Virus record (IMG/VR): IMGVR_UViG_3300020409_000071
Location: 1 to 25,355 of that record
Origin: a virus
Taxonomy: Duplodnaviria > Caudoviricetes
Direction: 5' to 3' (one strand)
Length of the DNA stretch: 25,355 nt
The notes beneath the pieces are model-generated. The model was not told where the DNA came from, did no database searches, and was given only the letters and a program-made list of their open reading frames with translations. Shown here piece after piece: positions 15,578-24,762 of the stretch; within the stretch, counting starts at the first letter, position 1, and each line of letters opens with the position of its first letter. Both the position numbers and the translations under genes were made by a program.

Positions 15578-18575
15578 GTCGTCTGTTATGGTAAATGCCA
15601 TCCCAGCTTCCTGAGATTATGGCAGTAGAAAAAGGGTCGGGTATTTGTATTTGTAGTGTATATTTCTCGTTCTTACGTTGTATTGGTACTCGTACACTGC
15701 GAGCTAACTCTGCAGGAGGCTCATCAAATACAGAAGAATTAGATAATATACCAGACTCAAATTGTACATAATCGTCTATATCTTTAGTAACATTGCCATT
15801 AGCATCTACATATGAGTATGGTGATGTAAGATGAAACTCTATAGGGCCACCTACACCTAACTCAAAATTGATGCCATTTATACGTAGATCTCCGTCCACA
15901 TCATAGACGTTTTGACCTACGTTTAAGTAGTATGTTGGTAATTCAATAGTACTTGTGTACTTATATCCTACAGCAACTTTGGCTGCACTATGTAAGTTAA
16001 TATTATTAAATGTTACACTGTTAGTACCTACAGCATCAGCTGGTCTTACAACCCCAGCTATAGAGTTACCATCGCTATCGTTACCAGATAAACCAACCAT
16101 AACTAAATTTGTAGTGTTAGCAGGTGTATATGGTATTGTAAGTACAGTTTTTTCTGGAGCTGTAGTTGTTTGAGCTGACCCAGCTACGTTTGTAGCTATT
16201 GTCATATTATCTAAATGTGCCTCAAACTGTCTTGCAGTTTTAAGAGGAGAACCTATATCACTAGCAGAACCACCTAATACATATGCTCTATTAGTGTTTG
16301 AATCTGTAACATACTCATATCTACATAGTTTATATGTATTATCATGTAGTGTAACTGCAAAGAAACTACCACCTGTATACAATGTATGTTGTGCTGTGCC
16401 TGTTAATGTCCAGCTATACCACGCTGATTGCTCACGTTTGTTACCTGTATTGTAGTATTTATAATGATATACAACACTATCTCCTTTTTTACTATAGCTG
16501 ACAATACCTATAGCTGTAGAATTAGCAGATTTAGTTATATCTTTAGGTAAAAATTCTGGTACAACTCTTGTCTGTTCTATAATCTGAGGCGGTGTATCAT
16601 CATCTATTATCGTAGCTTCAAATGCTCTAGCATACGCTGCTACGTTTGATGTAAATAGTATTGATGTACCTAGATCCACAGGCTGTATAGAGGAGTCACA
16701 CTCATAACTAGCTAACTTCTTTAATCTAGCAGTTTTAGGACTAAATATATCTGACTCTGTAAATAATAAGAATTGACCATTATCACTAAACATCATCAAA
16801 CCTTTTTGTATTGGTAAGACGTGGTTAATAAATGCTGGTTTTACATCAGATACTGTAATATCTATAGGGTTATCATCACTGAAAGATATAGCAGATACAA
16901 TAAAAAAGTTAAAATAACTTCCTGGCTGACTTAGTATTATATTTTCTCCAGAAACAAAACCTAATCTATTTCTGTGAAAAAACATTTGCTGTATTTTATG
17001 ACCAGTAAATGTAGGAAAAGGATTAGATACGTCATCACCTACATCTCTATCTTTCCAATAGTTATCATTGTTAGCAGCGTTTGCAGTAGCCTCATCTAGC
17101 TTGGCAAAAGTAAATGTACCATTACGGTTGTTTATCAAAGCATGTGGCATTGTTGCAGGATTAAAACCTTTCAACATTGGGTCACTTCCAGAGCCATCAA
17201 AGTTGTGAGGTCGTACAGTTTCTTCATAACTACCTGCCCCAGAAACACCATTATTAGCTTCAAACTCTACATAGTAATCATCAGTATCTAAATCAGCTGC
17301 GTTAGATACTTGAGCTACATAACCATGCTTATTCATAGCTGGTAGTCTAGTAATATCTTGTGCTCTTTGACCAATGACACTCATGTTTTCATTAACAGCT
17401 CCACCAAGAAAGTTAACACCATCTGCAGCTGAACCGTGCATGTATAAACCACTACCAATAACCTCAGCTGTTACGTTTGATAAATTACTATTAACAGAAT
17501 TTTTTAAACCATTAAGAATAGTAGCCATAGATATAGCACCGTTCTCTTGGTTTTTAGGTGTTTTGTGGTAGCCTATACCAGATACGTCTTGATATGTTGT
17601 GACTGGTTCAACAGCTTCAACGGATACACGATAGACAATGCCTTCTATAGTAACGTCTACAAATAAACCTTCAGCTGTAGATTGGTTGGTGGTCTTAATT
17701 AAACCGCCATCTCGTAATGTTACTGTAGCTGTGTAACGTATATCATAGTCTTGAGTATACCCTAAAAAGTCAGAACTCGCTGTACTGTTTCCATTAAAGT
17801 TTGCTACGTTATTAGCAATATAGCTGTTACCGTTTACTTGTAAACTGCCTTCAATATTTTCTGTGATATTTGTACCACCTACCTCAGCACCGCTTGTATC
17901 TACTGCACTACCCCCAGAAAATGACCAAGTTAGTGTACCAGACTTTTGCTGATTTTCATTTGTGTCATTCCATGTTGGGCCTTCTGCAGTGCCACCATTC
18001 ATCCTGTCTACCTTTACAGAAGTAACCCTGTAAAATGTATTGGGTGTGGGAGCTGTACCAGTATATAAAATATATTCAGTATTGTAAGCAACAGTATCCA
18101 GCCTAGCAAATGAGTAATCTCCATTGTTAATTGGTGCGGATGTAGTTGCAGTAGATTTCTCTACAACTTTGTTTGGGTTAGCTATTATAGTATAGTCTTG
18201 AATTGTGGTAACTGCATAGGGTGATGTAGCTCCAGCTAAATAACTAAATAAAGAATCTCCGCTAGAATTTGTCAGAGATTTTTCAGTACCATCTGCTAGA
18301 TCCCATACTCGTATAGGCATACTACCACTGTTAGATGGAGTGATTTGTACAATGTACTTTTCATCACCATCTCTAATTATGTCATACCAATGTCCACTTG
18401 TATTAGCATTGGTAAGTGTTCCTACAAACTCTGCAGGAGGGCGTTTCTTCAACCCAAATGTAACGTCTGGGACAGCGTTATCACATACTCTTAACTGTCC
18501 TGGAAATTTAATTTTATCTGGCTGTTGAGATACACCTCCTAGAAAGTTAGGAATACGTTGGTTGATTGCTGCCAT
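15564..18575 (-). CDS. gp12: Tail tubular protein B (nozzle)
   Basis: 1003 aa. N-terminal INQRIPNFLGGVSQQPD...GLKKRPP, TMPHALI, WKDRDVGDDVSNPFPTF, FFHRNRLGF and DDNPIDI are hallmark T7 gp12 motifs. Confidence 0.95.
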   Translation of the reverse strand: MAAINQRIPNFLGGVSQQPDKIKFPGQLRVCDNAVPDVTFGLKKRPPAEFVGTLTNANTSGHWYDIIRDGDEKYIVQITPSNSGSMPIRVWDLADGTEKSLTNSSGDSLFSYLAGATSPYAVTTIQDYTIIANPNKVVEKSTATTSAPINNGDYSFARLDTVAYNTEYILYTGTAPTPNTFYRVTSVKVDRMNGGTAEGPTWNDTNENQQKSGTLTWSFSGGSAVDTSGAEVGGTNITENIEGSLQVNGNSYIANNVANFNGNSTASSDFLGYTQDYDIRYTATVTLRDGGLIKTTNQSTAEGLFVDVTIEGIVYRVSVEAVEPVTTYQDVSGIGYHKTPKNQENGAISMATILNGLKNSVNSNLSNVTAEVIGSGLYMHGSAADGVNFLGGAVNENMSVIGQRAQDITRLPAMNKHGYVAQVSNAADLDTDDYYVEFEANNGVSGAGSYEETVRPHNFDGSGSDPMLKGFNPATMPHALINNRNGTFTFAKLDEATANAANNDNYWKDRDVGDDVSNPFPTFTGHKIQQMFFHRNRLGFVSGENIILSQPGSYFNFFIVSAISFSDDNPIDITVSDVKPAFINHVLPIQKGLMMFSDNGQFLLFTESDIFSPKTARLKKLASYECDSSIQPVDLGTSILFTSNVAAYARAFEATIIDDDTPPQIIEQTRVVPEFLPKDITKSANSTAIGIVSYSKKGDSVVYHYKYYNTGNKREQSAWYSWTLTGTAQHTLYTGGSFFAVTLHDNTYKLCRYEYVTDSNTNRAYVLGGSASDIGSPLKTARQFEAHLDNMTIATNVAGSAQTTTAPEKTVLTIPYTPANTTNLVMVGLSGNDSDGNSIAGVVRPADAVGTNSVTFNNINLHSAAKVAVGYKYTSTIELPTYYLNVGQNVYDVDGDLRINGINFELGVGGPIEFHLTSPYSYVDANGNVTKDIDDYVQFESGILSNSSVFDEPPAELARSVRVPIQRKNEKYTLQIQIPDPFSTAIISGSWDGIYHNRRHVRR

Positions 18576-19213
18576 TACATTCTTCTTAGTACTTTAAATG
18601 GTCTATATGTTGTGTTAGCATCTTGCTGATACTGAAAGTCACTAAAGATATTATGGTCAGATTGTTTCATCTCATACTCCACCGCTAAAGCTCTTGCAGC
18701 AGCTTCATCTGATTCTAATAATTTAGCAGATGGCTGACTGTTTACCATACGGTTAGAGGCGATTCTGGATGCTCTGGTAGTAATATAGTCTTTAAAGGCT
18801 TGTGGTAGATCTTCAAAATCTAACATCCATACAATGTCAAAATATAATTTACTACAATTTTCAAAGGTAAAGCTATGATTCTTTTTATCGTATACCTTCA
18901 TTACACCATTGTCACTACGTCTAACTATATCATAATCTTTACCGTGTTCAAATATGTTTAGGTCTAGTTGTAGAACATTGTTTGGTATAATACACTGATT
19001 GTTTGTATCGAGGTTTATAGGATACTGGTTCTCTGTGTTGTATGACCATCCCTCAGCTTGTATCTCACGGCAGACTTGCCTTAGAGTATTTTGTGCTATA
19101 ACCACTTCTGGGCTTTGCACCGTTAATGTATTAACTGGGGTTTCTCCAACGCTCATCAGGATTGAATTTACAGCATCTAGTTCGGTAGACACTCCGTAAG
19201 ATATTTGTGCCAT
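18575..19213 (-). CDS. gp11: Tail tubular protein A (adaptor/gatekeeper)
   Basis: 212 aa with TELDAVNSILMSVGETPV, IQAEGWSYNTE and FEDLPQAFKDYITTRASR motifs. Follows the capsid gene. Confidence 0.95.
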   Translation of the reverse strand: MAQISYGVSTELDAVNSILMSVGETPVNTLTVQSPEVVIAQNTLRQVCREIQAEGWSYNTENQYPINLDTNNQCIIPNNVLQLDLNIFEHGKDYDIVRRSDNGVMKVYDKKNHSFTFENCSKLYFDIVWMLDFEDLPQAFKDYITTRASRIASNRMVNSQPSAKLLESDEAAARALAVEYEMKQSDHNIFSDFQYQQDANTTYRPFKVLRRM

Positions 19214-19215
19214 AT

Positions 19216-19238
19216 AAAAAAGGGGGGCGAGTGCCCCC
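19216..19238 (-). terminator. Rho-independent terminator after the capsid gene (T7 Tphi-equivalent position)
   Basis: Minus strand reads GGGGGC-ACUC-GCCCCC-C-UUUUUU, about 15 nt after the capsid stop. Confidence 0.88.
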
Positions 19239-19253
19239 GTATAAATGTATATA

Positions 19254-20423
19254 TTATGAGAAAGCTGCTGGCTTTGTAGTTGTTCCTGCGAACAATTCTA
19301 CACAAGCTGCTGGGTTCACATAATCTGCTCCCATAGCCATGCGTCCTAGGATGACATCGCCTTGGTATACCACTGAAACGTCTCCAGAAGTTACTTGAAC
19401 TTGTGGGCCAATGGTTTCAACAACACCTGCAGCTTCTCTTTGGAAGATAAGTCCACATGTGTTTGCAAAGTTAGAGGCAGCACCGTAGTTTTGGCGAGGG
19501 CCATAGTTGTTACCTGTAACTGTTGTAGCTGTTTCGATTGCCTCAGATACGAAATCACCTGTGTTGCCAGGATCTACTGTATCAAGGTCAGTAGCAGCTG
19601 AAGCACCACTTGAAGGTGCATACTTAGTACCATACTTAGAGAAGAATGGGACGTTCATTGATTTGTAGATTTGAATACCTGCAATTTCAATTACACCCTT
19701 TCCGCTTTGTAAAGCTGTACCTTGTACATCTCTGTTAATTAGTCCGTTAGAACCAGCTTCTGTGATAAGAGCGTAGTACTGTCTTGGGTTAAGAACAGCT
19801 ACTCTTCCATCATCAGATACACCTTTTTCATCTAGTGCAGCTGCAGCATCATAAAATGCTGTTACTAACTTAGAAGAATCAAGAGCATCGTCAGCGTTAG
19901 AACCTGCACCAACTCTAATTTGTGTACCGCCTGGCTCTGTAAAGTTAGACATAGAAACAGGAGAAGCCTGTCTAGCACCTTTAGCAATAGCTCTGAAGAT
20001 TAGTCTGTCATACTTTTGTGCAAGTGCATAACCGATCTTCCTAGAAATCTCTCCTCTTAACTCATAGTGTGAAAGTGTCTCGTCTAGCTCATAAACAAAT
20101 GCAGAGCTGATTAATAGGTCATCTACTGTAATTGTTTTTTCTGCTACTGGTGGAGTTTTGTCAGAGTTTCCTAATATACTGTTGCCAGGAGTGTGGTATT
20201 CCGCACTTGTACGTCCAGTATAGATGAACTGTAAACTCTTACCGTTTGTGAGTGTACGCTTCATAACGAGATCTCTTGCGATTGTCTCTCTTTGGAAGCC
20301 AGTAAACATCTCACCTGAGAACAACTTTAAATATAAATCTCTGTTATTTGAAGCGTTCCCTGTTGCATTAATCCTACCTAGAAAGGTTTGTGAGGTAGGG
20401 TTATTTGTTGACTGTTGTGCCAT
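19254..20423 (-). CDS. gp10: Major capsid protein
   Basis: 389 aa with LYLKLFSGEMFTGF, RTLTNGKSLQF, EKTITVDDLLIS and GYALAQKYDRLI motifs of T7-type gp10A. Confidence 0.97.
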   Translation of the reverse strand: MAQQSTNNPTSQTFLGRINATGNASNNRDLYLKLFSGEMFTGFQRETIARDLVMKRTLTNGKSLQFIYTGRTSAEYHTPGNSILGNSDKTPPVAEKTITVDDLLISSAFVYELDETLSHYELRGEISRKIGYALAQKYDRLIFRAIAKGARQASPVSMSNFTEPGGTQIRVGAGSNADDALDSSKLVTAFYDAAAALDEKGVSDDGRVAVLNPRQYYALITEAGSNGLINRDVQGTALQSGKGVIEIAGIQIYKSMNVPFFSKYGTKYAPSSGASAATDLDTVDPGNTGDFVSEAIETATTVTGNNYGPRQNYGAASNFANTCGLIFQREAAGVVETIGPQVQVTSGDVSVVYQGDVILGRMAMGADYVNPAACVELFAGTTTKPAAFS

Positions 20424-20444
20424 TATTTTGTAGGGTTATATGTA

Positions 20445-20590
20445 TCGTCTCTAGATCTAGAATTATAGGAATCTTAATTGTATCAGCTAAGACTCAAGCT
20501 GTTTGTGGTCTATCCCACCGTCATGACGGCATAAGGTATCTCCGTAGAGGCTCATACCAAGTGTAGAGGGAGGCATTGCACCTCCCGTGT
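20445..20590 (-). promoter_or_regulatory. Structured non-coding leader of the capsid gene (several hairpins and palindromes)
   Basis: GGGAGG-UGCAAUG-CCUCCC (20568-20586); GGUAUGAG/CUUAUGCC stem enclosing CUC-UACG-GAG; perfect palindrome CCGTCATGACGG (20518-20529); GUGG-GAUAGA-CCAC; CAGCU-n8-AGCUG; palindrome TCTAGATCTAGA (20450-20461). Confidence 0.55.
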
Positions 20591-20593
20591 CGC

Positions 20594-20725
20594 TTAACGA
20601 ACTACTTTATGATAATGTATATTTGGTCGTTTTTCAGTCATGTGTGTTTTAATGTGGCTTAATTCTAAAGCACCCATTATAAGAGCTAGACCTATTATGC
20701 CGAACCAAATTGCTTTGTCATTCAT
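20594..20725 (-). CDS. Small single-pass membrane protein (43 aa)
   Basis: Not in the track. MNDKAIWFGIIGLALIMGALELSHIKTHMTEKRPNIHYHKVVR. ATG overlaps the YRG-peptide stop (ATGA). One TM segment then a His-rich tail. Confidence 0.65.
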   Translation of the reverse strand: MNDKAIWFGIIGLALIMGALELSHIKTHMTEKRPNIHYHKVVR

Positions 20726-20775
20726 TTAATAATTTTGGTGTAAGCAACGCCACGATATACGTAAGTTACTGTCAT
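20722..20775 (-). CDS. 17-aa YRG 'downstream peptide' (DUF4278-like)
   Basis: Not in the track. MTVTYVYRGVAYTKIIK, with SD GGGAG (20782-20786) 6 nt upstream. The YRGVAY motif is the signature of peptides that follow Downstream-peptide RNAs. Confidence 0.8.
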   Translation of the reverse strand: MTVTYVYRGVAYTKIIK

Positions 20776-20787
20776 GGTAAACTCCCA

Positions 20788-20845
20788 TATACCAAAGCCC
20801 CGTTCCATGCTTTGGTGTCATGCGTCCCGAAGGATGAACGGACGT
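20788..20845 (-). ncRNA. Glutamine-II riboswitch (Downstream-peptide RNA motif)
   Basis: RNA reads GUCCGUUCAUCCUUCGGGACGCAUGACACCAAAGCAUGGAACGGGGCUUUGGU. P1 CCGUUC/GAACGG, P2 UCC-UUCG-GGA, and pseudoknot-type pairing ACCAAAGC/GCUUUGGU. Directly upstream of a YRG peptide. Confidence 0.88.
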
Positions 20846-20849
20846 AGCG

Positions 20850-21362
20850 TTATTGATTAAGGTATGTGTGTACAACGTATCTATATCCTTTAGGACAAGA
20901 TACTGTATGAGGGTGTGTATAATATACAGGATATATTAAAACCTCACCTCGTTGTAAAGTTGTGGTAAGTTCTTGATTAGGAAACTCATACTCACCGCCT
21001 TCATAATCATTATTCAAGCCGATAGTAAGACCAACCGTTCTTAACTTGCCATCATCATGTGAGCCAAACAAACCGTTAGCGTGGAACTTTGTAGCACCGT
21101 AAATCTTTCTTAGTAAGTAACCATCATCTCCAGAAAATTGTGCAAACGTATAGTCCTTAACATACTCTGTAAGTACTTCTTTAATTTTTTTCAAAATAAA
21201 GTCTACGTATTTTCTCTCACTTAGATATAAATTATGACCCAAGTGATCTCCTGTACCTAGTCCTTGATAGGCTAATTCTGAATTTGATTCATAGTAGTCA
21301 ACGAGTTCTTTACAATACTCCTTACTAAAAACGTCACCGTACTTTGCGATACCGTCTTTCAC
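20850..21362 (-). CDS. 2OG-Fe(II) oxygenase (prolyl-4-hydroxylase-like)
   Basis: GTG start 4 nt after the hli stop. Motifs FSKEYCKELV, LNNDYEGGEYEF, RGEVLIYP, THPHTV and GYRYVV. The first metal motif reads H-A-N. Confidence 0.85.
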   Translation of the reverse strand: MKDGIAKYGDVFSKEYCKELVDYYESNSELAYQGLGTGDHLGHNLYLSERKYVDFILKKIKEVLTEYVKDYTFAQFSGDDGYLLRKIYGATKFHANGLFGSHDDGKLRTVGLTIGLNNDYEGGEYEFPNQELTTTLQRGEVLIYPVYYTHPHTVSCPKGYRYVVHTYLNQ

Positions 21363-21366
21363 TGAC

Positions 21367-21495
21367 TTATAAAATTCCAGGAATTATCTGACCTGTGGTA
21401 GCATACGCTCCAACAGCAGCAACAAAGCCTATCATAGCTAACCAGCCATTTAGTCTCTCAGCGTTTTCCCAGTGTGTGTGGTTGTGGTGTGTCAT
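21367..21495 (-). CDS. hli: High-light-inducible protein (42 aa)
   Basis: Not in the track. MTHHNHTHWENAERLNGWLAMIGFVAAVGAYATTGQIIPGIL contains AERLNGxLAMIGF and TGQIIPGI, typical of phage/multicopy Prochlorococcus HLIPs. ATGA-coupled to the upstream gene. Confidence 0.95.
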   Translation of the reverse strand: MTHHNHTHWENAERLNGWLAMIGFVAAVGAYATTGQIIPGIL

Positions 21496-21725
21496 TTTCT
21501 TCGTTTATGGTTGTAGTTAATTCTACGTGAACTTGTTTTAGATTTTCTAAATCTTGATTTTTCACCGCTAGACATCTCTTTAGTAGTCTTTGGTGTTTTG
21601 GATGAGACTCTGCGAGATGGACGACAAGCGGGGTAGCCTTTACGCTTTTCGCCTTTCTGTCTGCCACATGGCTTACCAGTTTTTACGTCCACCCACTTCT
21701 CTTTAAACCATCTTCTTAGACTCAT
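21492..21725 (-). CDS. Basic protein resembling the DUF5872 C-terminal half (77 aa)
   Basis: LRRWFKEKWVDV...CGR...YPACRPSRRVSSKTPKT motif, ATGA overlaps at both ends. Family name from recollection of the motif. Confidence 0.75.
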   Translation of the reverse strand: MSLRRWFKEKWVDVKTGKPCGRQKGEKRKGYPACRPSRRVSSKTPKTTKEMSSGEKSRFRKSKTSSRRINYNHKRRK

Positions 21726-21883
21726 CTCTTTCCTCTAGTATATCCTTTAGCGGTCTTTCTTTTACCACCAGATTTTACTTGTCCTTTACATACCTTTACA
21801 GCGTAAGCATTAGCATATGCTGAGGGGTATACCTTGAACTTTCTTTTCGCAGCTGCTTTACCACGGGGACATAGTTTAGCCAT
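21722..21883 (-). CDS. Basic protein resembling the DUF5872 N-terminal half (53 aa)
   Basis: Not in the track. MAKLCPRGKAAAKRKFKVYPSAYANAYAVKVCKGQVKSGGKRKTAKGYTRGKR. TAATG overlap upstream, ATGA downstream. Confidence 0.78.
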   Translation of the reverse strand: MAKLCPRGKAAAKRKFKVYPSAYANAYAVKVCKGQVKSGGKRKTAKGYTRGKR

Positions 21884-21939
21884 TACTTCTTCTTGCCTCC
21901 GTGTTTACAGCCACACTTAGATCCTTTCTTGTGTGCCAT
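21883..21939 (-). CDS. 18-aa basic Cys/His micro-peptide
   Basis: Not in the track. MAHKKGSKCGCKHGGKKK exactly fills the gap between two genes, with TAATG overlaps on both sides. Confidence 0.65.
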   Translation of the reverse strand: MAHKKGSKCGCKHGGKKK

Positions 21940-22184
21940 TAGCATTTCCATCTACGTAGTGCCAACGCTTTACGGGTTGGCTTTCCGTTGGGCTTTTTCA
22001 TTGGCCCTTTTACTCCCTTCATGCGAGCACAAAAGGAACGCTTACGAGCCCCACCTTGAGGCTGAGGAGCCTTGAGGTTGGAGCCAGTAGCCCTATTATA
22101 TTTACGCCTACCCTTGGCAGTAAGCCCACCTTTACGGGACTTCTCTCCTCGACCTAGAGATAGGCTTACGCCTCTCCTAGCCAT
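21939..22184 (-). CDS. Basic protein, DUF6321-like (81 aa)
   Basis: GGLTAKGRRKYNRATGSNLKAP...RKRSFCARMKG...KPTRKALALRRWKC motif. TAATG-coupled on both sides. Confidence 0.78.
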   Translation of the reverse strand: MARRGVSLSLGRGEKSRKGGLTAKGRRKYNRATGSNLKAPQPQGGARKRSFCARMKGVKGPMKKPNGKPTRKALALRRWKC

Positions 22185-22315
22185 TACTTTTTCTTACCGA
22201 GTATTTTCTTTTGTACTGCTTTTGGTAACTTAGATAAACCTTTGCTCATCTTCTTACCGTTCTTTGCAGGTGGTCTACCTTTCTTACTTCCGTAAGTTCC
22301 CTTACCCATTGGCAT
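22184..22315 (-). CDS. 43-aa Lys-rich protein
   Basis: Not in the track. MPMGKGTYGSKKGRPPAKNGKKMSKGLSKLPKAVQKKILGKKK. SD AGGAG overlaps the scaffold stop, and its own stop overlaps the next ATG. Confidence 0.75.
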   Translation of the reverse strand: MPMGKGTYGSKKGRPPAKNGKKMSKGLSKLPKAVQKKILGKKK

Positions 22316-22327
22316 TTTTTTAGTCTC

Positions 22328-23176
22328 CTATACTTTTAAGTTTGATGCGGATAGTTTTCTTAGAACATCATCTCTGTATGCTTCATCAGTCTGATATTCT
22401 GGTTTGTTCATGTCTCTGACAACCTCAGCCATACTTCTATAACTTTCAGTAGCTGACTCTTTGCCAGTAACTACACGGGAATCTCGTCCCTGTGAATCTT
22501 CGTATTTTCCCATTAGTGCTGTAACTGCAAATTTAATAGCTGATTTGTTTCCTGTTTTCAATACATCATCGTAATCATTCTGTGCTTCTTTATCTAGGTT
22601 TTGACCAGCCCACTCCATGAGAGCCTTATAGCCTTCTTCACCGTTAGCTATACCTTTTATCTCATTAACTTCTGCATCAGTTAATACAGGTTCTGCTTCT
22701 TGATAACCTACTTCTTCACGGACACCTTTTAAATATGAGTCAACTAACTGTCTATTTAAACCAGCTTTACCAAGTTTGTCATACATTTCATCAGACAAAG
22801 TACCATTGTTCTCCTCAAAATGTTTATTCATTTCAAAAGGATCTATGCTGTTGTCTTTAAATATGTTACCTAGTTGTTCACCGTATACTTCGTTAGCTGT
22901 ATCATAATTAACAGACCCATCCTCAGAATAGAATTGATATTCTGTTGTAGGTTCTGCTGTCTCTTCAACTTTTTCTGTAGGTGTCTCACCTAGTTTCTTT
23001 TGCAGTTCATTGTAAGCTGCCTCTAAATCTTCGACATTCTTGTACTTACCAGCAAGCATTTTCTCTTGCTTTGCCATAAGCTCTTCGCCTATCTTTAGAG
23101 ACTCAGCTTCTTTTTCTGCAATTTGTTGTGCTGCTACAGGATCATCTGATGTATCGTAGCGGATTGTTTCTGCCAT
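22328..23176 (-). CDS. gp9: Capsid assembly (scaffolding) protein
   Basis: 282 aa, acidic. LAGKYKNVEDLEAAYNELQKKLG and C-terminal YRSMAEVVRDMNKPEYQTDEAYRDDV motifs. Follows the portal. Confidence 0.93.
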   Translation of the reverse strand: MAETIRYDTSDDPVAAQQIAEKEAESLKIGEELMAKQEKMLAGKYKNVEDLEAAYNELQKKLGETPTEKVEETAEPTTEYQFYSEDGSVNYDTANEVYGEQLGNIFKDNSIDPFEMNKHFEENNGTLSDEMYDKLGKAGLNRQLVDSYLKGVREEVGYQEAEPVLTDAEVNEIKGIANGEEGYKALMEWAGQNLDKEAQNDYDDVLKTGNKSAIKFAVTALMGKYEDSQGRDSRVVTGKESATESYRSMAEVVRDMNKPEYQTDEAYRDDVLRKLSASNLKV

Positions 23177-23178
23177 AG

Positions 23179-24762
23179 TTATTGTGGTGGGGTTGTTCCA
23201 GATAGTGCTGCTGCTATTGCATTAGGTGCTTCTGGGTTTTTAGATGGGTCTAATAATGGAGTGCTTGCAAGTTGACCAGCTTGGTCAGTTAATGACTGCA
23301 TCTGTTGTGCTTGCATTGCTTGTTGTTGTTCTTGATTACGCTCGTCCACACTCTTAACAAGGTTCAGTATGTCGATACCTTGTGAAGCTGCTAGACGTTT
23401 GATAGCTTCATCAGCGTTCATGTACTGCTGTAAAGCCTGTGGCCCCATTGTTTGGGACACAGTAGTTATAAACTGTACAAGAGCATCTCTGTCCTGTCCT
23501 CTACCTAGTGCATTTATACCTGCTACAATGGTAGGTTTAACTAGATTAGATGGTACAGAAGGTATCTTCTTAGATCTAGTTAGTGTGTGCATAGTACGTC
23601 CAAGGTAAGGTATTAAGAACTCTGTAGTTAACAAACTGAATAGTCCACCCAGCTGTCTTTCTAGCTCCATCTGTGTCATCCTTACTTCTTCCGCTGTAGT
23701 ACGTTCTGACTGACGTGGATTGAGAATCAAAAATGCTTCTGACAATCTCTTCTCCAACATGTTTATCATTTGATATGCAGTTTGAAAGTCAGCAGTTTTA
23801 CCTACTTGTACCACACCTATCTCATCAGGTCTACCCTGTATGATAGCACCATTACCAGCGTTAGCTAAAGCTGCAGGTTTTGTTGTAGCTGAAGGTGATA
23901 CAGTAAATACAACTTTGGCTGCAGCTGCACTGCCTTCAACGACAGCTTGCATCAATGCCTCTAAAGATTTCAAGTCCCCAAGGAACTCTTCAACTCTAGA
24001 ACGTCCGTAATCTTCTCCGTCTACAGTGACAAAACGTAGTGGTAGCCAGGGGGTCTTGTCCTTGGGTGCTTTACCTACACTGTCAGGTAAGACCATATCG
24101 TTAGCTTCTTGATGCCAACGCCAACCATTATTATATAGTTTTACACATGTATATACATCTACATCTTTCGTACCTTTATAGTCACCTTTGGAGTCATCAT
24201 TAGGACTGTTCTCTTCTTCTATTTCTGGCAACCCTAATAATTTTTTACTGACTCGTTCTTTAGTAACAATCTCAACCACGTTTCCATTACCATCTCTCTC
24301 AACTACATAGCGATTAAGTGGGTATACTTTCATACCTTCCTTTGCCATATAAACAAGAGCGTTGCCTGTCACGACTAGATGTTTTAGTGCTGCAAATATT
24401 TGAACTCTGTCTGTGGAGGCAGCAATGCTCTCCATAATCATACGCTCTATCTTTGCAAAACTAAGATCTAATTCACTCTTTGCTTCGGGTGGTATCTCTA
24501 CACCTAGTTTAGAATCATCTAGCTGTAGTTTAAAAAAACTGGTTGACGGAGGTAGGAGTCCTAGCATAAGTTTTGAACTCAGCGTGGTAACTCCTTTGGC
24601 TCCGACTGATTGCCAAGGTGTTGCAAAACTTTGATATAAAGCATCACCTTCATTTCTCATTAGTAATGTTGGAATGGTTAACTCCGCACATTCATAAGCG
24701 ACATGTAAGAACTGTTCACGGTGACTCGATAACTCGTTGTATCGTTGCCGTGCGTTTTTCAT
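23179..24762 (-). CDS. gp8: Portal / head-to-tail connector
   Basis: 527 aa with PWQSVGAKGVTTLSSKLMLGLLPP, GEDYGRSRVEEFLGDLKSLE, ERTTAEEVR and ALGRGQD motifs. Confidence 0.97.
   Translation of the reverse strand: MKNARQRYNELSSHREQFLHVAYECAELTIPTLLMRNEGDALYQSFATPWQSVGAKGVTTLSSKLMLGLLPPSTSFFKLQLDDSKLGVEIPPEAKSELDLSFAKIERMIMESIAASTDRVQIFAALKHLVVTGNALVYMAKEGMKVYPLNRYVVERDGNGNVVEIVTKERVSKKLLGLPEIEEENSPNDDSKGDYKGTKDVDVYTCVKLYNNGWRWHQEANDMVLPDSVGKAPKDKTPWLPLRFVTVDGEDYGRSRVEEFLGDLKSLEALMQAVVEGSAAAAKVVFTVSPSATTKPAALANAGNGAIIQGRPDEIGVVQVGKTADFQTAYQMINMLEKRLSEAFLILNPRQSERTTAEEVRMTQMELERQLGGLFSLLTTEFLIPYLGRTMHTLTRSKKIPSVPSNLVKPTIVAGINALGRGQDRDALVQFITTVSQTMGPQALQQYMNADEAIKRLAASQGIDILNLVKSVDERNQEQQQAMQAQQMQSLTDQAGQLASTPLLDPSKNPEAPNAIAAALSGTTPPQ

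Follow-up and report, generated by a model that had tools for sequence, protein, structure and literature searches.

The window analyzed here, i.e., the whole 25,355-nt stretch of viral DNA in IMGVR_UViG_3300020409_000071, corresponds to the structural half of the genome of a T7-like cyanopodophage, with every gene on the minus strand. Its genes succeed one another in the order portal, scaffold, small basic ORFs, hli, 2OG-Fe(II) oxygenase, switch region, gp10, tail tube and nozzle, internal virion proteins, and tail fibers. The major capsid gene gp10 (19254..20423, minus strand; Pfam Gp10A-like, E = 1.7e-70) shows 68 to 74% identity to the closest T7-like cyanophage records, and a terminator scan placed a terminator 3′ of it at 19238-19223 (minus strand). 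Upstream of the switch, hli (21495-21367) and the oxygenase gene (21362-20850) together occupy the slot (20850..21495, minus strand) filled by psbA in most relatives. The interval between scaffold and hli holds five short, very basic ORFs (77, 53, 22, 81, and 43 aa) arranged head to tail at 21492-22315 (minus strand), two of which carry DUF5872 and DUF6321 matches. Nine terminator-like sites were found within 18500-23500. None of them lies on the minus strand within 20850-20424, as originally predicted for the region before gp10, but this interval is far from empty and contains a conserved structured RNA, hereafter the capsid leader. An antisense terminator-like hairpin (20484-20501, plus strand) lies inside this leader. 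Three sigma-70-like sites on the minus strand within the 43-codon ORF described below were not used, the scan having returned 14 sites versus 11.5 ± 3.6 by chance.

Ten nucleotides after the stop codon of the upstream gene, inside the phage late operon, begins a Glutamine-II (Downstream-peptide) aptamer (RF01704; 20843-20791, minus strand), the sole Rfam match at gathering score in the whole window. The Rfam covariance model aligns over its full length (1-60) with 50.0 bits versus a gathering score of 33 (E = 1.5e-9), which confirms the intact aptamer that had been proposed from the letters. P1 carries a UUCG loop and P2 has 8 bp. The 50 nt from C1 (20840) to the end of P2 (20791) align one to one with the crystallized construct of PMC6698751, and on this mapping to the structure reported there the ligand-contact and core nucleotides are complete (C1, G2, C39, G40, G18, C19:G41, and A33:G42). 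The Shine-Dalgarno (SD)-like GGGAG (20786-20782, minus strand) follows P2 after 4 nt. It is the 3′ strand of P2 that ends so close to this site and not, as had been thought, that of the pseudoknot, which spans 20805-20801 (G36-G40 ends at 20801) and terminates 14 nt before the SD. The ORF for a 17-aa single-repeat YRG peptide (20775-20722, minus strand; PHROG 5049, E = 0.023) starts with the ATG at 20775, 15 nt 3′ of P2, and its 3′ end overlaps by an ATGA the start of a 43-aa ORF (orf43; 20725-20594, minus strand); both ORFs, the SD, and the overlap are in the sequence as described. A 28-aa version of the YRG ORF was rejected because its upstream ATG, in the aptamer loop, belongs to the conserved aptamer. 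The distance of about 350 nt to gp10 holds when counted from the YRG start (352 nt to the gp10 start) and fails when counted from the end of the 43-aa ORF, which lies 170 nt before gp10. The aptamer is placed to control translation of the YRG peptide in the late operon of a T7-like cyanophage.

The switch is real, and it is a known riboswitch type. The motif was defined upstream of ORFs of 17 to 100 aa in PMC2864571, whose 2010 alignment, in the portion available, includes a copy from cyanophage P-SSP7 (NC_006882.1/19588-19642). This copy sits between psbA and gp10, the same place as in the window, so novelty of the switch itself is not supported. The accessible portions of PMC6698751 and PMC6212724 report L-glutamine binding by the class and increased expression of the ORF that follows; PMC6212724 adds ammonium-induced expression from a Prochlorococcus copy, a link of the ORFs to DUF4278, and the absence from them of the C terminus that binds glutamine synthetase (GS). 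The main text of PMC6212724, in the version accessible, makes no mention of phage; PMC9004378 describes glutamine riboswitches in other marine phages, as far as its available text goes. The accessible texts of PMC12379486, PMC12695635, PMC7885011, PMC7760959, PMC8092223, and PMC10134795 do not treat the element, and none of the records fetched has the switch annotated. Scanning viral contigs with a pattern yielded at least 120 switch loci, with an estimated ∼1800 viral stretches stored. Among the viral matches listed, 116 of 120 have a YRG ORF 3′ of the aptamer, the four misses being cut contigs, and 112 of 120 have psbA, hli, gp9, gp10, gp222, or orf43 beside it. At gathering score, Rfam recovered the aptamer in 14 of 20 named cyanopodophage records, and missed it in S-B28, S-CBP2, P60, and Syn5 within the same set. 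S-SBP1 has a half-lost aptamer, with the 3′ half only (L003:2503-2536) and an intact peptide, and S-CBP3 (L251) a divergent one that Rfam misses. The aptamer core was also present in 29 of 41 loci chosen by the capsid leader alone with 1100 nt of upstream sequence. The switch is thus near-core in T7-like marine cyanophages and no curiosity of a single phage.

A predicted anti-RBS strand (20838..20842, minus strand), which includes aptamer C1-G2-U3, is complementary to 20788-20784 (duplex energy, −5.9 kcal/mol). Without glutamine, the 5′ strand of the aptamer would pair with the ribosome-binding region, whereas ligand binding would lock this strand in the pseudoknot and free the ribosome-binding region. 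Of 127 leaders, the 12 of one class have a matching complementary tail in 12/12 cases, which is found in 0/115 other leaders, although these 12 are probably one lineage; in the class to which the window belongs, 85 of 98 leaders carry a GGA/GAG tail. Own leader-tail duplexes are modestly more stable than swapped ones (−6.66 versus −5.67 kcal/mol; better than the median in 58%). When the start region is opened in a bound-like state, the energy needed is lower at 79 of 118 loci and higher at 5 (48 and 15, respectively, with 15 more nucleotides), a test that favors a fall by construction, because blocking the aptamer removes pairing partners. In the window, equilibrium folding shows no switch, with the SD paired in both states and opening costs of 4.09 versus 4.07 and 5.31 versus 5.76 kcal/mol. 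ON-switching here is likely, mainly on the published behavior of the class.

The phage peptides are short (13 to 22 aa in 77 of 114), whereas their host counterparts have 33 to 72 aa (73 of 120 genome loci gave a peptide, the rest including noncyanobacterial pattern matches) and those shown consist mostly of repeated YRG-type units. The YRG residues are conserved between phage and host proteins, which suggests a protein function. The original prediction looked for this function in GS and lysis, i.e., a cassette built for the purpose, its YRG peptide inhibiting the GS of the host as IF17 does and its second, orf43-encoded membrane peptide timing lysis. The aptamer class is compatible with such a design, and so are four longer phage peptides that match DUF4278 weakly (E = 0.005 to 0.065), all of which, at 14 to 18 bits, fall below the curated cutoff of 25.3; PMC6212724, in its accessible part, suggests an IF17-like function for the host proteins. 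The window peptide itself has no Pfam match and does not reach the DUF4278 (PF14105) cutoff, and its 17 aa are the YRG unit only, without the C-terminal region by which IF7 and IF17 bind GS. According to the text available of PMC6316151, the N-terminal part of IF17 covered by DUF4278 is stabilizing and dispensable for function; since this is the part that the phage peptides resemble and the window peptide lacks a Pfam match, the case for GS as the target is weak. The Prochlorococcus proteins likewise lack C-terminal residues needed for GS binding (PMC6212724, accessible portion). The YRG peptide itself is thus probably not a GS inactivator. A tentative alternative, somewhat less probable than not, is that the peptide acts as a one-repeat mimic of the host proteins with two to four YRG (DUF4278-like) repeats and would take up their partner when nitrogen is ample. 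PirA was considered as a closer relative of the peptide and discarded: no paper in the literature searched joins PirA and DUF4278, and the available text of PMC8092223 gives PirA as absent from marine picocyanobacteria.

The second member of the proposed cassette, orf43, encodes a predicted single-pass membrane peptide with one hydrophobic segment (best 17-residue hydropathy value, 2.11; residues 6 to 22). The hydrophobic segment of the original description thus holds, while "His-rich" amounts to 4 of 43 residues, though these are invariant in 8/8 aligned copies. Its pN/pS of 0 to 0.51 against six copies, with five synonymous and no replacement changes relative to the nearest one, marks orf43, as judged from these alignments, as a real gene under purifying selection. 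It is lineage limited, with four homologues in the protein database and no named family in Pfam, PHROG, or Atlas, where it forms its own unnamed cluster at 0.93; the Atlas rows that do bear names score 0.79 to 0.80, which is chance level, and were rejected. Fetching loci by the 3′ end of orf43 gave 44, of which 39 were resolvable. The switch and an ATGA-coupled YRG ORF precede orf43 in 33 of these 39, whereas in the other 6 (5 distinct, with two deletion types) orf43 is intact and switch and peptide are both lost. One contig from an RNA library skips 20723-20852, which is the same 128-nt loss. Relatives' contigs from four RNA runs cover the aptamer, orf43, and the capsid leader, but they do not prove expression because neither strand nor ends are visible in them. 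Seen from the switch, orf43 is rare (4 of 120 loci among the viral matches listed). A census of the slot after the YRG stop started from 127 distinct loci, of which 94 were resolved to the leader (30 were too short or unparsed and 3 had no peptide): the slot is empty in 52 and filled in 42, with gp222, acidic peptides resembling the capsid N terminus, Cys-rich peptides, or orf43 (4 of 94, window included). The acidic peptides (41 to 57 aa, with a start like the gp10 N terminus) are frequent (loci L011, L022, L031, L041, L046, L052, L057, L072, L081, L100, and L121) and mostly coupled via a 1-nt stop/start overlap. At loci L004, L028, L029, L043, L045, L048, L056, L059, L063, and L084, gp222 (∼120 aa, with a signal peptide-like start) lies directly 3′ of the YRG ORF, and it is a better candidate for glutamine co-control than orf43. 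The coupling in 33 of 39 orf43 loci makes co-regulation real within this lineage, where control of orf43 by the switch is likely, yet incidental, and the two peptides do not make up a unit. Purifying selection on orf43 and its coupling speak for the GS-and-lysis cassette; its rarity beside the switch, its persistence after switch loss, and its lack of a family match speak against it. Neither GS inhibition nor lysis timing finds support in these data, and we regard that reading as very unlikely.

BLAST of the region revealed a second noncoding block before gp10, which is also found in phages without the switch and falls in the 170 nt between orf43 and gp10 that had been overlooked. Its 5′ module is a mini-tRNA-like element (20561..20605, minus strand; fold z, −2.35) composed of a short acceptor-like stem, a small hairpin, and a T-arm (20586-20568); the loop of the small hairpin is the stop codon of orf43 (20596-20594). 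A T-arm occurs in 48 of 115 distinct leaders, and in 48/48 of them 8 or 9 nt separate the end of the T-stem from the next module, as at the 3′ end of a tRNA. An acceptor-like run of at least 5 bp accompanies 67% of the T-arm leaders versus 16% of shuffles. In 4 of 115 leaders, ARAGORN detected tRNAs that keep this register, most other T-arm leaders having mini-tRNAs; at the window leader, neither ARAGORN nor Rfam reported a tRNA gene, and no cloverleaf with an anticodon arm is found. In the predicted fold, the T-arm is stacked on the acceptor-like stem, at tRNA spacing from the 3′ cut site. Host RNase P/RNase Z-type cleavage at the mini-tRNA (at a real tRNA in some relatives), with a slightly better than even chance, would set the 5′ end of the capsid mRNA at 20560. 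Such tRNA-like cutting cannot be the sole route because 64 of the 115 leaders have a different conserved hairpin in this slot and no T-arm; 3 leaders are unclassified. The alternative hairpin (e.g., loci L031, L130, and L246) has a fixed ∼19-nt top on a variable stem and no Rfam match. A tRNA-Asn lies between the scaffold and capsid genes in the distant T7-like phages RHEph01 (L306:738-808) and LUZ100 (L309:432-507), and an 18-nt motif of the leader occurs in the tRNA cluster of a 68-kb contig without gp10 (L135:1201-1218).

The module that follows is the core of the capsid leader (20528..20560, minus strand), an outer stem with a 1x4 internal loop (C opposite AUAC) beneath a UACG-capped hairpin. 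Next come a self-complementary octamer between two stems (20520..20527; 12 nt with its flanks, 20529-20518), a hairpin with a GAUAGA-type hexaloop (20505..20518), and a second perfect palindrome (20450..20461), all on the minus strand. Across 101 distinct sequences, 97.7% of 1715 cells in the leader stems pair and 9 of 17 pairs are changed on both sides, counts that relatedness inflates; none of 500 shuffles paired as well, and slid controls reached 29 to 58%. In the octamer, 100% of cells pair in the 101 sequences, 12 of them changed on both sides, and compensated variants of the hexaloop stem appear among loci not selected by the hexaloop-hairpin motif. The covariance model CM R1 found clade B-like leaders, with 15 of 21 sources recovered at E < 1e-7, and missed distant ones, so a simpler pattern was used for the latter. 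The core loop was present in 129 of 132 leaders, many of which had been selected by a neighboring leader motif, and before the capsid gene of 23 of 27 named T7-like phages versus 3 of 1080 shuffles. This pattern was written after sequences had been seen, and the sequences are related, so that the counts are not independent. Carriers include P60, Syn5, P-SCSP1a, two pelagiphages, a roseophage, and a Rhizobium phage; among the 27 named phages, the core was missed in S-CBP2, S-CBP4, LUZ100, and T7. A blind pattern scan that required neither pairing nor context returned 73 matches, of which 72 have a paired stem and 70 lie before a capsid gene (29 distinct). A search of the sense strand over the full window gave a single core loop, and gp9 upstream regions gave none (0 of 7). 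Its variants are C opposite AUAC, ACAC, ACAA, or AUAA (C/AYAM) under hairpin loops UACG, UGCG, or UAAG. In the leader census, 80.5% of 118 leaders have a second palindrome of at least 10 nt, a share that drops to 12.4% in shuffles and 2.5% in controls from gp10 coding sequence. The palindrome varies between phages, with 57 different sequences. By eye, an extra palindrome of 6 to 8 nt is often seen in the A-rich linker from the hexaloop hairpin to the last palindrome (e.g., loci L127, L137, and L156). No SD-like site precedes gp10 in 117 of 118 leaders. With about even probability, the C/AYAM loop would serve as an operator bound by a head protein of the phage or by a factor of the host, with palindromes that let leaders pair mutually.

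Besides the aptamer, Rfam 15 gives nothing better than E = 3.4 in 20380-20900, and at the leaders of 20 named phages it gives nothing except one genuine tRNA and a T-arm fragment of 17 nt. The literature searched, a set without subscription papers on P-SSP7 transcription, contained no paper on either the capsid leader or the phage peptide. The switch is catalogued; the uncatalogued part is the capsid leader, a folded RNA absent from Rfam and the literature searched, and a better lead than the cassette. An abiF RNA match lies upstream of one capsid leader (L128:1336-1372, minus strand) and a group I intron match at another locus (L193:592-837, minus strand).

The block before gp10 might instead act as DNA, as a promoter for the phage RNA polymerase or as a cruciform or protein-binding site. 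The T7 phi10 promoter has the same position, perfect palindromes read identically on both strands, and in LUZ100 a local phage promoter drives capsid expression (PMC10134795, available text). The stems, however, show G-U-type changes and compensatory pairs, their hairpins are capped by UACG/UGCG/UAAG loops, real tRNAs fill the upstream module in relatives, and it is the sense strand that gives the covarying structure (−17.8) while the antisense strand does not (−11.9; z, −0.02). A DNA element is thus hardly probable. In T7, the gene 10 transcript begins at the phi10 start with bases (L304:1205-1217) that resemble the 3′ side of the hexaloop hairpin (window 20516-20502), which may be chance.

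Control of capsid output by the switch was the remaining part of the original prediction. For a translational switch, with gp10 at a variable 227 to 1383 nt from the aptamer core in relatives, simple read-through is unlikely; an indirect route could run via the mini-tRNA. In such cis coupling, the peptide would be mainly a track for ribosomes: glutamine would promote translation, whose termination within the mini-tRNA (relayed by orf43 here) would unfold this element and alter cleavage and stability of the capsid mRNA, so that host nitrogen status sets capsid output. The route is opened by the position of the stop codons inside the mini-tRNA. The YRG stop lies 8 to 18 nt before the T-stem, inside the element, in 33 of 42 mini-tRNA leaders, and the orf43 stop does so in 5 more, the window, with its stop codon as a hairpin loop, providing an example; the C-terminal VVR tail of orf43 is the same as that of some YRG peptides. 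In leaders with the alternative hairpin, the YRG stop is nearby in just 8 of 63, and the upstream stop lies 5′ of the stem in 51 of 56. Switch-less alleles nevertheless retain orf43 and the mini-tRNA, P60 has a T-arm element at the gp9 end without a switch, the overlap of stops may be genome compaction inherited by few lineages of shared ancestry, and the conservation of YRG residues with host proteins points to a protein function. We therefore hold cis coupling to be unlikely. The best explanation, which we consider probable, is a translational ON switch for the YRG peptide, probably with orf43 as an ATGA passenger, and a gp10 under its own conserved RNA leader, predicted to be released by cleavage at the mini-tRNA and recognized by a separate factor.

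Capsid protein accounts for a large share of the nitrogen that infection costs, so that a nitrogen sensor beside the capsid gene lends itself to direct tests in phages for which genetic tools exist. The boldest extension of these data, a rather improbable one, is an RNA-only wiring from nitrogen status to capsid, in which glutamine-gated ribosomes stop in the mini-tRNA and thereby decide on release of the capsid mRNA by host tRNA-processing nucleases, the released leader carrying the operator loop and self-associating palindromes. If true, the operator loop would be common to T7-like phages of SAR11, Roseobacter, and Rhizobium. Taken together, the tRNA punctuation signal, the loop that phages of two bacterial phyla have in common, and the palindromes independent of sequence would yield a first model of how these phages synthesize their most abundant protein although their capsid genes hardly ever have an SD.

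Elements of this locus have parallels in known systems. tRNA punctuation and tRNA-like processing signals are substrates of RNase P and RNase Z. The leader shares with them the order of T-arm, 8 to 9 nt, and next RNA, and relatives have a full tRNA-Gly, -Leu, or -Asn before gp10; the window differs in the lack of an anticodon arm, an acceptor-like stem of 4 to 6 bp, and the overlap with the stop codon of the upstream gene. With the C-loop motif and with translational autoregulation of the P22 scaffolding protein, the leader has in common an internal loop that is small, asymmetric, and C-containing and lies ahead of a head gene. The window has a 1x4 loop under a UNCG-type hairpin before gp10, a likeness at the level of secondary-structure pattern alone. 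Unnamed candidate RNAs before PHA00201 capsid genes are listed without function in the accessible part of PMC10690425 (DNAVirus_231, _3706, _3823, _3864, and _5397); compared by description only, they are similarly short, of aquatic-phage origin, and within 25 bp of the major capsid gene, two being flagged as palindromic, and part of the capsid leader may already be among them. The gifB/IF17 leader with its Glutamine-I (glnA) switch (RF01739) resembles the locus in glutamine-activated translation and in YRG-type segments (DUF4278; PF14105), but it uses another aptamer class, and the 17-aa phage peptide has neither the C-terminal GS-binding part nor a Pfam match. RF01704 itself, as far as the available texts of PMC2864571, PMC6212724, and PMC6698751 describe it, has the same aptamer in the same place before a short YRG ORF; in the window, it sits in a phage late operon before one YRG unit instead of the host repeats, and behind this unit come a gene slot of variable content and the structured leader of the capsid gene.
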